Source: Escherichia phage T4 | Strand: one strand, 5' to 3' | Length of the DNA: 64,000 nt | Sequence record: OL964735.1 | Part shown: positions 37,757 to 45,977 of the stretch, piece by piece | Layout: each line of letters opens with the position of its first letter | Numbering within the stretch: position 1 is the first letter of the stretch | Program-made: the position numbers and the translations under genes | The notes under the pieces: model-generated | The model's database searches: none | Told to the model about the DNA's origin: nothing | The model's input: the letters and a program-made list of their open reading frames with translations, nothing else

Positions 37757-39344
<1,588 letters not shown>

Positions 39345-39371
39345 AATAAAATGGGCCTTGCGGCCCACTCC

Positions 39372-39874
39372 TTAAAAGTATTTTTTAAAACTCATCATAA
39401 CTTTATCATCAACATCATTATCAATCTGTGCAACAAGGTAAGATGACAGTTCTACTTCTTGCGGCGCGGATTGAACATTATCAGAATTAAGATATTCACG
39501 AATCCAAGGATATGGATGTTTAACCGGAGCATCGGTAATTGGGCATGGAAGACCGCACTGTTTCATACGAGATACAGTTAAGTAATCAATAAAGCTCCAC
39601 ATGCTATTTGTATTTAATCCAGGAACATCACCATCTTTAAATAAATGAACTGCCCAGTCTTTTTCCTGGCGGTTAACTTCCATGAAAATATCAACTGCTT
39701 CTTGTTCACACTCTTGGGCAATTTTAACCCATTCATCACCATCAGTACCGGATTGAAGTTGACGAATAATATATTGGGTGCCTTTAAGGTGAAGCTGTTC
39801 ATCACGTGCAATGAACTTCATAATCTTGGCATTACCTTCCATGATTTCCATGTTCTTATGGAAGTTAAAGGTAC
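39372..39874 (-). CDS. nrdB: ribonucleotide reductase small subunit NrdB, exon 2
   Basis: exon boundary inferred from frame, intron ending in G, and restoration of conserved YVSFACTFNF...MEGNAK sequence. Confidence 0.88.
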
Positions 39875-40472
39875 CGTATGTTCGATTGAGCTCGCTAATT
39901 CTCAACCCGTTCTCTTATGAACTGCTGCATGTTACCATGCAGTCCAGACTATATCACAATCCCGGAGGGATTCTCCCCATTTCGAGTCGCTTGACCCTAC
40001 GTCCGAAGACTAGTCGTTGAACCTTGTTTTGCAATTGTCGCCGTGCCATCGTTTATATGTTGATGGTGATAAATCTTTCTTATCACAATATGGACAATTC
40101 AATTGAATTCTATTTGGATTTAATTTACATCTGTCATTATGTTTTAGATAAAATCCAGGACCTTTACCAATGTGACCACAGAAATCACATGTGATTTCTT
40201 TTTGTGCAGGATGGGTCCCGTTCTTAACCATTTCTAATGTTTTTGCTGATGTTCTTTTCTTATGTTCTTCCATCAGAATCTTTAGGTATAGGTCCGTTAG
40301 CATCTATCCAAATTTTTCTATAGTTCAATTGTGCATCCTCTTAAAAGTATAATCATATTTATATTATACTAATTAAAGGTGCAAGCAAAACCTTGGCTGC
40401 TAGTTTTCCATAAAGGACTTTCCAGCAATTAAAGGAGTTTTCGATAAACGTTACCGTTTAAAGGCGCATTTT
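39875..40472 (-). mobile_element. group I intron in nrdB (598 nt) with degenerate homing endonuclease ORF
   Basis: in-frame stop directly after exon 1 U; core shared with td intron (TTTCGAGTC.CTTGACCCTAC); intron ends in G. Confidence 0.85.
40010..40303 (-). CDS. truncated intron-encoded endonuclease (I-TevIII remnant)
   Basis: 97-aa ORF inside intron with CxxC/HxxC zinc-finger-like motifs only; no catalytic domain. Confidence 0.75.
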   Translation of the reverse strand: MLTDLYLKILMEEHKKRTSAKTLEMVKNGTHPAQKEITCDFCGHIGKGPGFYLKHNDRCKLNPNRIQLNCPYCDKKDLSPSTYKRWHGDNCKTRFND

Positions 40473-41136
40473 ACGCAAAAGATACATAAAAACGAATAGC
40501 TTCTAAGGCATTAATAACGTGCAAACAGAGGTAAAGAGATTTCATCAGATCTCGTTTAGCTCTTTGCTCAACGTCTTTATCAGCTAGAATTAGACCTTGG
40601 TCTTTATAATATTCAACCATGTCTTTAGCATTTTCCCATTCACGGGTTTTAACCAAGACATCATCGTAATATCGCCCAATGGACTCAGCACGTTTCATAA
40701 TAGCTTCATCTAATACAATCTCATCAAACACCTTCGATGGATCAGTATAAAGATTTCGCATGATATGAGTATATGAACGACTGTGAATAGTTTCACTAAA
40801 AGTCCATGTAGCAACCCATGTATCAAGGCTTGGGTCTGAAATTAATGACATAAGTACAGCAGATGGCGCACGACCCTGAATGCTATCCAAAAGTGATTGA
40901 TACTTCAGGTTGTTAGTAAAAATATTTTGCTGATACTGAGGAAGCTTATTAAATTGCGCAGCATCCATCATTAAGTTTACTTCTTCAGGACGCCAAAAAA
41001 AACTGATCTGCCGCTCAATGAGTTCTTCAAATACTCGATGTCGTTGAATATCATATCGAGCTAAACCTAATCCAGAACCAAAGAACATCGGTTCATTCAA
41101 AACATCAACTGGATTTGTATTAAAAACTGTACTCAT
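40473..41136 (-). CDS. nrdB: ribonucleotide reductase small subunit NrdB, exon 1
   Basis: exon 1 plus exon 2 total 1167 nt = 388 aa plus stop. Confidence 0.88.
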
Positions 41137-41831
41137 TTAGAATCCTTAAATTTACATTTATCATAATGCCATCTTAAAGCATTGCCTTTATTAACTTTCT
41201 TACCACAGTGCGGGCAAGGTGGATACTCTGCTCCTTGTTTAGTTCTCAAAGAAATCAAATCACGGGTTTCTTTAGTATGAGGAACATCTCTTGTCGGAGA
41301 AATTGTACCATACATCGGATTAAGCACGCCGACTTTAGCAGCAGCTATATTCTTTTTAGCTTCTTCAGTTTTAGGCTTTCTCATCTTTTTCTTAGTTTCT
41401 TCGCTTTTAGCCCTTCCTTTGGTTGCCGCCGATATTTTGTGTTTGGTTTCTTCTGTTAAACGCAGACCTGTTTTCGCTTTTGACATTTTCAGTCTCGTTT
41501 CTTCAGAAATGACCGTACCTTTGCGAAATTGCGAATTTAACTTCTTTGCATGGGCATATATTTTAGAATGAACTTTATAATGACGTTTCTTAGTTCCTTT
41601 CATATTGCACATCATGAAAAATGCGAATATAACAGATTTTACCGGATAAATCTTTGATAAAATAGCATGCGCTATAAAATGCTCTCTAGCTGTTAATTCA
41701 ACTAAATTTTCTTTATCATCAGAACCTCCCATGCATCTAGGGATTATATGATGTGTCTCTTTATATTCGGATAAAGGTTCCCGAGCCTGAGCTCGGGAAA
41801 TTAGGTCGTTATAGATTTTTTGATAATTCAT
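41133..41831 (-). CDS. mobE: HNH homing endonuclease-like protein MobE
   Basis: 232-aa ORF; HHIIPRCMGGSDDKENLVELTAREH HNH motif; wedged between nrdA and nrdB with overlapping start/stop. Confidence 0.85.
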   Translation of the reverse strand: MNYQKIYNDLISRAQAREPLSEYKETHHIIPRCMGGSDDKENLVELTAREHFIAHAILSKIYPVKSVIFAFFMMCNMKGTKKRHYKVHSKIYAHAKKLNSQFRKGTVISEETRLKMSKAKTGLRLTEETKHKISAATKGRAKSEETKKKMRKPKTEEAKKNIAAAKVGVLNPMYGTISPTRDVPHTKETRDLISLRTKQGAEYPPCPHCGKKVNKGNALRWHYDKCKFKDSK

Positions 41832-44095
41832 TACAATTTACACGCTGCACAATCATCGGCTTTAGGAGTTTCTATTTCATAATCATCAGTACCAGAACCA
41901 TCACGGGTATTATGATAATAGAAATTTTTAATGCCATAATACCATCCGTATAGCATGTCATCAATCATTATTGACATTGGAACCTTTCCTTTTGGAAAAA
42001 TCTGCGGGTCATAATATGTATTCGCTGAAGCTGATTGACATACCCATTTCAGCATAATAGCTACCTGCGTAAGATAAGGTTTATTACCTTTCTTAGCTAA
42101 TTTCCATGTATAATCATAGAGGTCTATGTTATGCTCAATATTGGGCACGACTTGATTAAAGGAACCCTCTTTTGATTCTTTAACACTTACCGGTCCACGT
42201 GGAGGCTCGATGCCGTTTGTACTGTTAGAAACTTGGGAAGATGACTCACATGGCATAAGTGCTGATAATGTGCTATTACGGATGCCAAATAGCTTAAGGT
42301 CTTCCCGCAGCGCCGACCAGTCACAAACGTATTTTGGAGCTGCGATTTGGTCAATCTTTTTATTGTACCAGTCGATAGGTAATTCGCCTCGAGACCAACG
42401 AGTGTCTGAATAATATTCGCAAGGTCCTTTTTCTTTGGCGAGCTTAATGGATGCTTTAATGAGTCCATACTGTAATCTCTCAAATAGTTCATGTGTTAAA
42501 TCGTTAGCATCTTCATAAGAAGCAAAGTTACTTGCCAGCCAAGCTGCATAGTTGGTAACACCTACACCGAGGTTACGACGCTTTTTAGCTTTTTCTGCTT
42601 CAGGAACCGGATATCCTTGGTAATCCAACAGATTATCAAGAGCACGAACTTGAACTTCTGCCAATTCATTAATTTTATCTTGGTCTTGCCAGTCAAAATT
42701 ATCTAATACGAATGCAGAGAGAGTACACAATCCAATTTCAGCATCAGGGCTATTCACATCATTTGTTGGAATAGCAATTTCACAGCACAAGTTACTCTGA
42801 CGAATAGGTGCCTTTTCACGAATAAACGGAGTATAGTTATTCGTATTATCAATGAACTGCACATAAATCCTTGCTGTTCCTGAACGTTCAGTCATGAGCA
42901 ATTCAAATAGTTCACGGGCTTTAATACGCTTTTTACGAATATTAGGGTCTTTTTCTGCTGCTTCGTATAATTCACGGAAACGGTCTTGGTCTTTAAAATA
43001 AGAATAATAAAGCTCGCCACCCATTTCATGCGGACTGAACAAAGTAATGTAATCGTTTTTTCCAAAACGTTCCATCATCAAATCATTCAGTTGAACACCA
43101 TAATCCATATGACGAATGCGGTTTTCTTCTACGCCTTTGTTATTTTTCAAAACGAGAAGATTTTCAACTTCCAAATGCCAAATAGGATAATAAGCAGTAG
43201 CAGCGCCGCCACGAATTCCACCCTGTGAACATGATTTAACTGCAGTCTGAAAATGTTTCCAAAAAGGAATAACACCAGTATGGCGTACTTCACCCATGCC
43301 AATCTTAGAACCTTCGGCACGAATCATACCAACGTTAATACCAATTCCAGCGCGTTTAGAGATATATTCAACAATTGAAGCAGAAGCCTTATTGATAGAC
43401 TTCAATGAATCTCCTGCCTCAATAACAACACATGAACTAAACTGTCGAGTCGGAGTACGACAACCAGCCATAATAGGAGTTGGCAATGAAATCTGTCGAG
43501 TAGATACTGCTTCATAAAAACGGATAACATGTTTTAATCTATCAACAGGTTCATCTTGATGCAGTGCCATTCCAATAGTCATAAATGCAAACTGTGGAGT
43601 TTCATAAATTTGACCAGTGGTTTTATCTTTAACTAGATATTTTTCTTTTAATTGCATTGCCCCGGAATAAGTAAATTCCATATCCCGTTCGTGCTTAATT
43701 TTTGATTCTAAAAATGTAATTTCTTCTGCTGAATATTTTGACAATAATTCAGGGTCGTATTTACCTGCATTTACACAATAAGAAATATGGTCAATAAATG
43801 AACGTGGTTCATACTGCCCATAAACATGCTTACGAAGAGCAAACATTAAACAGCGTGCAGCTACATATTGATAATCAGGTTCTTCAACCGAAATAGAATT
43901 CGCAGCAGCCTTAATGACAATAGTCTGAATATCATCAGTTGTCATTCCATCACGGAGATAAGATTTAATATTTTCATATAATTCATAAGGATCTACTGAT
44001 GTTCCTTCAGCTGCCCAAGATAAAACTTTAATAATTTTTTGTGGGTCAAAGCTCTGAGAAACACCACTACTTTTGATAACATTAATTAATTGCAT
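41831..44095 (-). CDS. nrdA: ribonucleotide reductase large subunit NrdA
   Basis: 754-aa ORF. Confidence 0.96.
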   Translation of the reverse strand: MQLINVIKSSGVSQSFDPQKIIKVLSWAAEGTSVDPYELYENIKSYLRDGMTTDDIQTIVIKAAANSISVEEPDYQYVAARCLMFALRKHVYGQYEPRSFIDHISYCVNAGKYDPELLSKYSAEEITFLESKIKHERDMEFTYSGAMQLKEKYLVKDKTTGQIYETPQFAFMTIGMALHQDEPVDRLKHVIRFYEAVSTRQISLPTPIMAGCRTPTRQFSSCVVIEAGDSLKSINKASASIVEYISKRAGIGINVGMIRAEGSKIGMGEVRHTGVIPFWKHFQTAVKSCSQGGIRGGAATAYYPIWHLEVENLLVLKNNKGVEENRIRHMDYGVQLNDLMMERFGKNDYITLFSPHEMGGELYYSYFKDQDRFRELYEAAEKDPNIRKKRIKARELFELLMTERSGTARIYVQFIDNTNNYTPFIREKAPIRQSNLCCEIAIPTNDVNSPDAEIGLCTLSAFVLDNFDWQDQDKINELAEVQVRALDNLLDYQGYPVPEAEKAKKRRNLGVGVTNYAAWLASNFASYEDANDLTHELFERLQYGLIKASIKLAKEKGPCEYYSDTRWSRGELPIDWYNKKIDQIAAPKYVCDWSALREDLKLFGIRNSTLSALMPCESSSQVSNSTNGIEPPRGPVSVKESKEGSFNQVVPNIEHNIDLYDYTWKLAKKGNKPYLTQVAIMLKWVCQSASANTYYDPQIFPKGKVPMSIMIDDMLYGWYYGIKNFYYHNTRDGSGTDDYEIETPKADDCAACKL

Positions 44096-44961: not shown

Positions 44962-45977
44962 CATTATGTTCAGATAAGGTCGTTAATCTTACCCCGGAAT
45001 TATATCCAGCTGCATGTCACCATGCAGAGCAGACTATATCTCCAACTTGTTAAAGCAAGTTGTCTATCGTTTCGAGTCACTTGACCCTACTCCCCAAAGG
45101 GATAGTCGTTAGGCATTTATGTAGAACCAATTCCATTTATCAGATTTTACACGATAAGTAACTAATCCAGACGAAATTTTAAAATGTCTAGCTGCATCTG
45201 CTGCACAATCAAAAATAACCCCATCACATGAAATCTTTTTAATATTACTAGGCTTTTTACCTTTCATCTTTTCTGATATTTTAGATTTAGTTATGTCTGA
45301 ATGCTTATGATTAAAGAATGAATTATTTTCACCTGAACGATTTCTGCATTTACTACAAGTATAAGCAGAAGTTTGTATGCGAACACCGCACTTACAAAAC
45401 TTATGGGTTTCTGGATTCCAACGCCCGTTTTTACTTCCGGGTTTACTGTAAAGAGCTTTCCGACCATCAGGTCCAAGTTTAAGCATCTTAGCTTTAACAG
45501 TTTCAGAACGTTTCTTAATAATTTCTTCTTTTAATGGATGCGTAGAACATGTATCACCAAACGTTGCATCAGCAATATTGTATCCATTAATTTTAGAATT
45601 AAGCTCTTTAATCCAAAAATTTTCTCGTTCAATAATCAAATCTTTCTCATATGGAATTTCTTCCAAAATAGAACATTCAAACACATTACCATGTTTGTTA
45701 AAAGACCTCTGAAGTTTTATAGAAGAATGGCATCCTTTTTCTAAATCTTTAAAATGCCTCTTCCATCTCTTTTCAAAATCTTTAGCACTTCCTACATATA
45801 CTTTATTGTTTAAAGTATTTTTAATCTGATAAATTCCGCTTTTCATAAATACCTCTTTAAATATAGAAGTATTTATTAAAGGGCAGTCCTACAATTTAGC
45901 ACGGGATTGTCTACTAGAGAGGTTCCCCGTTTAGATAGATTACAAGTATAAGTCACCTTATACTCAGGCCTCAATTA
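44962..45977 (-). mobile_element. group I intron in td (1016 nt) carrying I-TevI
   Basis: intron begins UAAUUGAGGCCUGAG immediately after exon 1 GGU and ends in G; contains GIY-YIG ORF. Confidence 0.93.
45109..45846 (-). CDS. intron-encoded GIY-YIG homing endonuclease I-TevI
   Basis: 245-aa ORF starting MKSGIYQIKN...KVYVGSA. Confidence 0.95.
   Translation of the reverse strand: MKSGIYQIKNTLNNKVYVGSAKDFEKRWKRHFKDLEKGCHSSIKLQRSFNKHGNVFECSILEEIPYEKDLIIERENFWIKELNSKINGYNIADATFGDTCSTHPLKEEIIKKRSETVKAKMLKLGPDGRKALYSKPGSKNGRWNPETHKFCKCGVRIQTSAYTCSKCRNRSGENNSFFNHKHSDITKSKISEKMKGKKPSNIKKISCDGVIFDCAADAARHFKISSGLVTYRVKSDKWNWFYINA

Follow-up and report, generated by a model that had tools for sequence, protein, structure and literature searches.

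In group I introns, an exogenous guanosine docks at the P7 helix, and a two-step attack then ligates the exons. Gott et al. 1986 and Sjoberg et al. 1986 reportedly demonstrated autocatalytic, guanosine-initiated splicing of the phage T4 nrdB intron in vitro. The closest described relatives of this intron lie in the same phage and in its near kin. The T4 td (I-TevI) and nrdD/sunY (I-TevII) introns have a homologous IA2-type core with P7.1 and P7.2, in which P7, P7.2, and P9 are near-identical to those of nrdB; the open reading frame (ORF) is looped out of P6a in td, as in nrdB, but follows P9.1 in nrdD. These two introns (1016 nt for td; 1033 nt, with a 7-bp P1, for nrdD) encode intact GIY-YIG endonucleases and are autonomously mobile (PMC1865063). 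The nrdB intron of phage RB3 (KM606994, AY262130; Robbins et al. 2007, PMC1865063) sits at the same insertion site as that of T4, with a core about 98% identical, the same ORF start, and the same C-terminal zinc-finger domain. The RB3 intron, however, is 1091 nt long and carries an intact 269-aa HNH endonuclease ORF, whereas the T4 intron is 598 nt long, deleted, and frame-shifted. In RB3 I-TevIII, the zinc fingers bind zinc and DNA, region 194-241 serves in dimerization, and the C-terminal region binds the homing site (PMC1865063). The RB3 nrdB intron is mobile and depends on I-TevIII for this mobility, whereas the nrdB intron of T4 is not autonomously mobile (PMC1865063).

Here we consider how the nrdB locus of Escherichia phage T4 (OL964735.1) compares with these systems, as seen in a window of 64,000 nt, which is the whole stretch of DNA analyzed. 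Over the 1.9 kb around the intron, nrdB included, the window is 100% identical to T4 genome OZ209023.1, and hundreds of other Tequatrovirus genomes match the same 1.9 kb at 90-95% identity. Compared over 6 kb, NC_000866 shows few differences from the window and none within the intron (window position = NC_000866 position - 98,583). The nrdB intron of NC_000866 and AF158101 (Eddy & Gold 1991) is the same element, with an identical intron sequence. Both records give the nrdB CDS as a two-piece join, which in NC_000866 spans 137955..139719 (window 39372..41136), and both annotate I-TevIII over the identical 294 nt, labeled [quoted passage not shown] The nrdB intron with its defective I-TevIII is already known from the annotation of NC_000866 and from the literature (Eddy & Gold 1991; Robbins 2007; Wilson & Edgell 2009; Edgell et al. 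2010). We hold it to be virtually certain that 40472..39875 (minus strand) is this phage T4 nrdB group I intron with a broken I-TevIII. On the minus strand, the gene order is nrdA (44095..41831), mobE, the interrupted nrdB, denA (39368..38934), and rnlA. A sigma-70 promoter scan of 39300..41900, the scope of which does not extend to T4 middle and late promoters, gave 9 candidates against 9.8 expected in shuffles, and a terminator scan of the same interval gave none. The features of the locus are as follows.

41831..41133, minus strand: mobE, a free-standing HNH/NUMOD3 homing endonuclease of 232 aa (Pfam; PMC2790892)
41136..40473, minus strand: nrdB exon 1, 664 nt, with ATG at 41136 and the 3' end ...UUUGCGU, whose final U is base 1 of a split Cys codon
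40472..39875, minus strand: nrdB intron, group I (subgroup IA2-type), 598 nt, from AAAAUGCGCC... to ...GAACAUACG, with the terminal G at 39875
39874..39372, minus strand: nrdB exon 2, 503 nt including the stop, starting GU ACC UUU AAC

The mobE gene is one 232-aa ORF in the window, whereas the older reference, with two extra bases, has it divided into mobE and nrdB.1.

The nrdB frame that begins at 41136 (minus strand) stops directly past ...TCTTTTGCG TAA. Exon 1 has the 3' end ...TCTTTTGCGT at 40473, the intervening sequence starts with AAAATGCGCC at 40472 and finishes with ...GAACATACG at 39875, and exon 2 opens with GTACCTTTAAC at 39874. When the exons are joined, the frame stays open for 1167 nt (388 aa and a stop); its joint codon T|GT encodes Cys, and the protein reads ...RFYVSFACTFNFHKNMEIMEGNAK... 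and ...EAIRFYVSFACTFNFHKNMEIMEGNAKIMKF... (FYVSFA-C-TFNF...MEGNAK). The intronless nrdB of phage T2 has ...TCTTTTGCATGTACCTTTAAC..., that is, GCA TGT ACC at the junction point; the 23-residue motif is identical in T2 and spliced T4, and the only difference is a synonymous GCG/GCA. The E. coli R2 protein (PDB 1PIY and others) aligns over residues 3-384 (E=1.5e-127), is gapless across the junction, and has the junction Cys as well (FYVSFACSF). The spliced product matches Pfam Ribonuc_red_sm PF00268 (4.5e-37; 128 bits against a cut-off of 33.6), and it is a full-length ferritin-like R2 sequence with iron-ligand motifs.

The case for a group I ribozyme rests on three lines: a partial Rfam match, a covariation-supported core, and the NC_000866 annotation. 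With respect to the first of these, a permissive Rfam scan of 951 nt placed Intron_gpI (RF00028) at 39925..40165, in the 3' half of the intron, and the Rfam group I consensus stretches GUUCAACGACUA and GAUAUAGUCU are matched in the T4 intron. A covariance model search, which the initial annotation had proposed as a check, thus detects the intron (E=3e-7), albeit at 35.7 bits, below the gathering score of 50. The threshold is missed because a 352-nt ORF-bearing insert in P6a splits the core, which the model is unable to span. Run over the whole window at the gathering threshold, Rfam returned no matches and overlooked the td intron in the window (45977..44962, 1016 nt) too; the practical lesson is that this threshold misses both of the window's group I introns because ORF inserts break the model. 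The permissive scan also listed rseX and emrB-Lactobacillus, which, with E values of 4-9, we attribute to chance.

With respect to covariation, blastn with the 3' 158 nt of the intron found related cores in 728 phage records, from phages of Escherichia, Staphylococcus, Bacillus, Pseudomonas, Vibrio, and others. A MAFFT alignment of cores was built from T4 nrdB minus its ORF, the T4 td and nrdD cores, and nine other phage introns. RNAalifold alone finds P7, P7.1, P7.2, P8, P9, P9.1, and P9.2 in this alignment, with 21 of 38 pairs compensatory; P3 (which forms a pseudoknot with P7), P4, P5, P6, and P6a were placed in the model by inspection. In the full P3-P9.2 model of 13 helices, 94.3% of the cells are paired, compared with 36-42% in controls with the 3' partners displaced by 1-3 columns, and 35 of the 61 pairs show two-sided (compensatory) changes. 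On four of five measures, none of 500 shuffles reached the observed values; on the fifth (further standard pair types), 6 of 500 did. In the MAFFT alignment, P3 and P6a of td and nrdD are shifted by one column, and the Staphylococcus phage introns are mis-registered in P4/P5; because of this misalignment, the counts for P3, P4/P5, and P6a are underestimates. Closely related nrdB introns contribute further compensatory changes in P2, P7.2, P9, and P9.2. The elements of the fold, with intron numbering where stated, are listed below.

40476..40464, minus strand: P1, exon GCGU (40476..40473) with guide GCGC (intron 6-9, 40467..40464); U.G at the splice site, loop AAAAU
40460..40445, minus strand: P2 hairpin, intron 13-18 with 23-28, GUAA loop
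40437..40432, minus strand: P3 5' strand CUCCUU (intron 36-41), whose partner is GGGGAG at 39978..39973 (intron 495-500); pseudoknot with P7
40428..40397, minus strand: P4 (intron 45-51 with 70-76) around P5 (56-58 with 64-66), with covariation
40396..40385, minus strand: P6 and P6a 5' strands, CC at intron 77-78 and GUUUUGC at 82-88
40032..40022, minus strand: P6/P6a 3' partners across the ORF-containing loop, GCAAAAC at intron 441-447 and GG at 450-451
40015..39947, minus strand: P7, the guanosine-binding helix GACUA/UAGUC, intron 458-462 with 522-526
Enclosed by P7 (intron numbering), minus strand: P7.1 at 463-472, P7.2 at 476-489, P3' at 495-500, P8 at 501-515
39942..39884, minus strand: P9 (intron 531-548, GUAA loop), P9.1 (551-564), and P9.2 (566-589), with covariation

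Several of these helices carry their own comparative evidence. P7 is invariant in all 12 aligned introns and is present together with the flanking J6/7 and J8/7 segments, and P7.1, P7.2, and P8 show many compensatory changes. Since both P7.1 and P7.2 are present, the intron belongs to the IA2-type phage group, in agreement with its designation as "group 1A" in the T4 record. P3 has equivalents in td (UCUAUC/GAUAGA) and nrdD (UCUGCC/GGCAGA), and compensatory changes are found in four of six P4 pairs. In the nrdB introns of S16 and DCP80, the P2 strands AAACG/CGUUU are replaced by AAGUG/CGCUU or AAGUG/CACUU. The P6/P6a helix that in T4 spans the ORF is closed directly in ORF-less relatives (SPG24, Vibrio D181, and Staphylococcus phages). 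A local hairpin, AAGGU...ACCUU (intron 79-99), was considered as P6 and set aside, CC/GG plus GUUUUGC/GCAAAAC being preferred as the pairing that fits the ORF-less relatives and the Rfam model. At the splice sites, the last intron base is the G at 39875 (...CAUACG|GU), and the U at -1 is predicted to pair with G6 of the internal guide. P1 (4 bp) and P10 (about 2 bp) are both without covariation in the sequences compared. The predicted P1 pairing, as read from the sequence, is unchanged in all 8 intron-plus alleles compared, with G at -2, where intronless T2 has A. In total, the initial view that the nrdB interruption is a group I intron is well supported by the three lines of evidence named above.

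Could the interruption of nrdB nonetheless mean something other than splicing? One reading is that the gene is truly split or broken, such that two polypeptides (221 aa and about 160-177 aa) form R2, or that it is a pseudogene with an unremoved mobile-element remnant. Automatic annotation of one T4 genome does give two separate CDSs, and split RNR genes assembled posttranslationally occur in T4-like phages, Aeh1 nrdA being an example (PMC3045599). Yet the end of exon 1 interrupts a conserved helix midway, 10 residues past an iron-ligand glutamate, and exon 2 lacks both a start codon and a ribosome-binding site at the position that conservation indicates; for this exon, the ORF finder resorted to an upstream TTG inside the intron. 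Moreover, the curated T4 record gives a join, and the insert contains a complete, covarying group I core with boundaries that restore the T2 and E. coli sequences exactly. Published work has already reported one 45-kDa polypeptide for NrdB or its spliced mRNA. We therefore see next to no chance that nrdB is split or broken. Even more improbable is that the 598 nt are skipped in translation, by ribosomal bypassing, or removed from the protein as an intein. Bypassing has a precedent in T4 itself, where the ribosome makes a 50-nt hop in gene 60, but the nrdB insert is 12 times the length of the gene 60 gap and has a group I core instead of take-off and landing codons. RNR genes are frequent hosts of inteins (PMC3045599), but the insert cannot be one because 598 is not a multiple of 3 and the exon frame runs at once into a stop (TAA at 40472..40470).

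A narrower doubt is whether the intron is genuine but its junction is displaced from 40472/39875 by a few bases or codons. An exhaustive scan of exon-1 ends against exon-2 starts gives 21,289 junction pairs with an open frame, of which 1,294 have an exon 1 that ends in T (U in the RNA) and an intron that ends in G, and with a P1 of 4 bp the guide alone defines the site weakly. However, just one pair in the entire scan, 40472..39875, restores the T2 motif and, with it, matches both the intronless allele and E. coli R2 in sequence; the next best pairs drop or add residues in the conserved FYVSFAC motif. Since the U/G rules leave 1,294 pairs, the uniqueness of the junction comes from the homologue comparison. 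The junction cannot slide because the boundary bases differ (A at the start of the intron versus G at the start of exon 2, and T at the end of exon 1 versus G at the end of the intron). The length of 598 nt is based on both the sequence and the NC_000866 join, whose span of 1765 nt is consistent with a 388-aa product after removal of 598 nt. A displaced junction is accordingly about as hard to credit as a split gene, and the intron boundaries 40472..39875 are confirmed to the base. Thus, the minus-strand intron of 598 nt proposed in the initial annotation was exact, and its restored Cys codon (UGU) agrees with the spliced frame, T2, E. coli R2, and the junction scan; its further statement that no other junction meets all constraints holds with the homologue motif but not on the U/G rules. 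Given the length of the insert, the in-frame stop, the complete core, the unique junction, and the annotated join, these alternatives to a spliced group I intron at 40472..39875 are excluded for practical purposes.

We turn now to the coding content of the intron, for which the relevant features are as follows.

40383..40332, minus strand: predicted Shine-Dalgarno-sequestering hairpin upstream of the ORF, -14.9 kcal/mol, z = -4.2
40328..40260, minus strand: remnant of the native I-TevIII N terminus, with a UUG start at 40328 and 22 codons (MNYRKIWIDANGPIPKDSDGRT), then a stop
40303..40010, minus strand: the "defective I-TevIII" ORF of 97 aa, with an internal AUG start in a frame that differs from the native one
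40270..40263, minus strand: deletion junction, within GAAGAACA

The 97-aa ORF, whose sequence includes MLTDLYLKILMEEHKK... and TSAKTLEMVK..., is 96% identical over residues 9-97 to residues 181-269 of RB3 I-TevIII. Homology to I-TevIII starts at about residue 12, and the roughly 11 leading codons are the old N terminus read out of frame. Residues 12 (approximately) to 97 are the C-terminal DNA-binding and dimerization domain of I-TevIII with its two zinc fingers, both of which conform to the motif CX2CX12-13HX3C (CDFCGHIGKGPGFYLKHNDRC and CPYCDKKDLSPSTYKRWHGDNC; motif definition from PMC1865063). Pfam finds HNH_3 at residues 4-48 of RB3 I-TevIII (E=1.9e-11) but no HNH domain in the T4 97-aa ORF. 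The T4 ORF is thus a remnant of the I-TevIII gene rather than a functional member of the HNH homing endonucleases. This comparison bears out the initial description of an ORF that retains only zinc-finger motifs and lacks a catalytic domain, and the alignment to full-length I-TevIII suggested at that stage gives the same picture; the accompanying expectation that the intron is not mobile by itself agrees with experiments (PMC1865063, PMC2790892).

The anatomy of the loss can be read by comparison with RB3. Relative to RB3, 491 nt are absent from T4, between two copies of GAAGA[A/C]CA in the RB3 sequence, and the missing segment coded for the HNH domain together with the central region (RB3 residues ~23-185). 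As the missing length does not divide by three, the native start now yields only 22 aa, closed by a stop at 40262..40260 that was created at the deletion junction. A deletion bounded by repeats in this way is the signature of slippage or illegitimate recombination. At the other end of the 97-aa ORF, the UAG stop falls inside P7/P7.1, such that the last codons double as ribozyme core. The Shine-Dalgarno sequence of the endonuclease ORF, GAGG at 40340..40337, is paired in the predicted hairpin, and a T4 late-promoter motif, TATAAATA, is located in the hairpin loop at 40363..40356; such an arrangement of hairpin and late promoter has been described for I-TevIII and the T4 intron endonucleases (PMC2988022). 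The RB3 ORF starts with UUG, 8 nt past GAGG. Substitutions in the zinc-finger remnant are few and may predate the deletions, and the point differences between the T4 and RB3 introns are likewise few, among them one compensatory change in P9, from G-C to A-U.

The intron is present in roughly 117 phage genomes. Those of the other Tevenvirinae phages PD112, DCP80, F26, Lv5cm, and AV109 share the insertion site and core of the T4 intron and have also had the nuclease domain deleted, but the endpoints differ. The F26 and Lv5cm introns (592 and 595 nt) have their junction in the same repeat as T4, resolved differently. In AV109 (592 nt), another junction, in frame, leaves a 101-aa fusion of the native N terminus and the zinc fingers behind the native start with its regulatory hairpin. 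In PD112 and DCP80 (304 and 309 nt), the whole ORF is gone between ACAATTG repeats. In all forms examined, the deletion junctions lie in short direct repeats, which makes microhomology hot-spots the simplest explanation. The number of independent deletions in which the nuclease was lost and the zinc-finger domain kept is two at minimum and may be three (T4, AV109, and F26/Lv5cm); the F26/Lv5cm junction may or may not share its origin with that of T4. Does the retained zinc-finger module have some residual function, as opposed to being mere debris? We consider this quite unlikely. If it were true, the nuclease-less module could exert repression at the promoter/operator of the intron itself, or it could counter the full-length I-TevIII of co-infecting phages, either as a dominant-negative partner or by blocking the site. 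Any such function in T4 would need translation from the internal AUG at 40303, upstream of which a GGA is weak and badly spaced.

We posit a mechanism that builds on the junction, the exon product, the covarying conserved core, and the deletion anatomy observed in the present analysis. The nrdB pre-mRNA would fold into a P1-P9.2 core with a P3/P7 pseudoknot and an IA2-type P7.1/P7.2 extension. In this model, with the self-splicing chemistry taken from the literature, an exogenous guanosine bound at P7 would attack the phosphodiester that follows the U in the U.G pair of P1 (...GCGU on guide GCGC), and the 3'-OH of exon 1, once free, would attack past the terminal G at 39875. Ligation of U to GU would then form the Cys codon of FYVSFACTF and thereby the 388-aa R2 subunit. 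The P6a loop carries the remains of the I-TevIII homing endonuclease gene. A 491-nt deletion between short direct repeats took out its HNH nuclease domain and caused a frameshift, so that an N-terminal stub of 22 codons remains together with an ORF of 97 codons that contains the two-zinc-finger DNA-binding and dimerization domain.

How, then, might such an intron spread? The inactivity of T4 I-TevIII and MobE-dependent trans-homing are both known from the literature. In T4 x T2 crosses, transmission of the nonfunctional I-TevIII along with its intron requires intact mobE; T2 nrdB receives a nick from MobE in its 5' part, and the intron is co-converted by the repair tract, a process termed "trans homing" (PMC2790892). 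In the proposed mechanism, self-homing would be impossible, and a MobE nick in the nrdB of intronless genomes would lead to co-conversion of the intron. The T4 intron is thus not stranded but is mobilized in trans by MobE, which is encoded directly upstream (PMC2790892).

This element was studied experimentally from 1986 to 2009, and nothing new on T4 follows from the present analysis. That the exact boundaries of a classic intron and its defunct endonuclease could be recovered from sequence alone is a check on the pipeline. For the biology of the family, the nrdB intron illustrates the textbook life cycle of a homing endonuclease: invasion, fixation, and degeneration, followed by rescue in trans through a neighboring endonuclease.

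The I-TevIII gene is carried by the same intron in other Tevenvirinae, where it has also been eroded, and the alleles of F26, Lv5cm, AV109, PD112 and DCP80, compared with window positions 40010..40328, are deletion derivatives that differ from one another. Every one of these deletions is flanked by short direct repeats. The AV109 deletion is in frame, and translation from the native start would yield a predicted protein of 101 aa that retains only the zinc-finger part; in PD112 and DCP80, the ORF is wholly gone, leaving an intron of about 305 nt. Side by side, these alleles show the decay of the endonuclease in graded steps. Upstream of the dead gene in the window lies the following element:

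40332..40383, minus strand, stable hairpin (-14.9 kcal/mol, z -4.2)

Here the ribosome-binding site (GAGG) that served the defunct endonuclease gene is base-paired, and the loop carries the late-promoter TATAAATA. The expression-control module is still intact, though the ORF that it controls now codes for only 22 residues.

In all eight intron-containing alleles examined, the splice site is preceded by the Ala codon GCG, whose last G (exon position -2, window 40474) pairs with a C of the guide. The intronless nrdB of phage T2 has GCA instead, with a predicted mispair. Two explanations fit this pattern: homing may have co-converted flanking exon sequence, or selection may have favored pairing in P1.

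The window also holds the second classic group I intron of T4, that of td, with its intact endonuclease gene:

44962..45977, minus strand, td group I intron (1,016 nt)
45109..45846, minus strand, I-TevI ORF within the td intron (intact, 245 aa, GIY-YIG)

The td and nrdB intron cores are clearly homologous, and GATATAGTCTG is common to both. The free-standing homing endonuclease gene next to nrdB reads as follows:

41133..41831, minus strand, mobE (one ORF, 232 aa, HNH and NUMOD3)

In the older T4 reference (NC_000866/AF158101), this stretch contains two additional bases, with differences near 41394 and 41477, and is annotated as a pair of genes: mobE, of 141 aa, and nrdB.1, of 83 aa. Because RB3 and more recent T4 records also have one ORF, the split looks like a sequencing artefact.

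An Rfam scan of the entire 64-kb window at the gathering threshold returned no families, and so both genuine group I introns (39875..40472, nrdB; 44962..45977, td) were missed. On the nrdB intron, RF00028 scores 35.7 bits versus a gathering threshold of 50 bits, because of ORF inserts in P6a; introns that carry ORFs are thus systematically missed at this threshold. A blastn search with the 3' core of the nrdB intron (39875..40032) found recognizable relatives, at 70 to 80% identity, in 728 phage records. The hosts of these phages are very distant, and the phages include Prevotella phage Lak-B6 (a Lak megaphage), Bacillus phage SPG24 and Vibrio phage D181. Many of the matches carry no intron annotation (“none” or “hypothetical protein” at the matched stretch), and group I introns therefore appear to be widely under-annotated in phage genomes.
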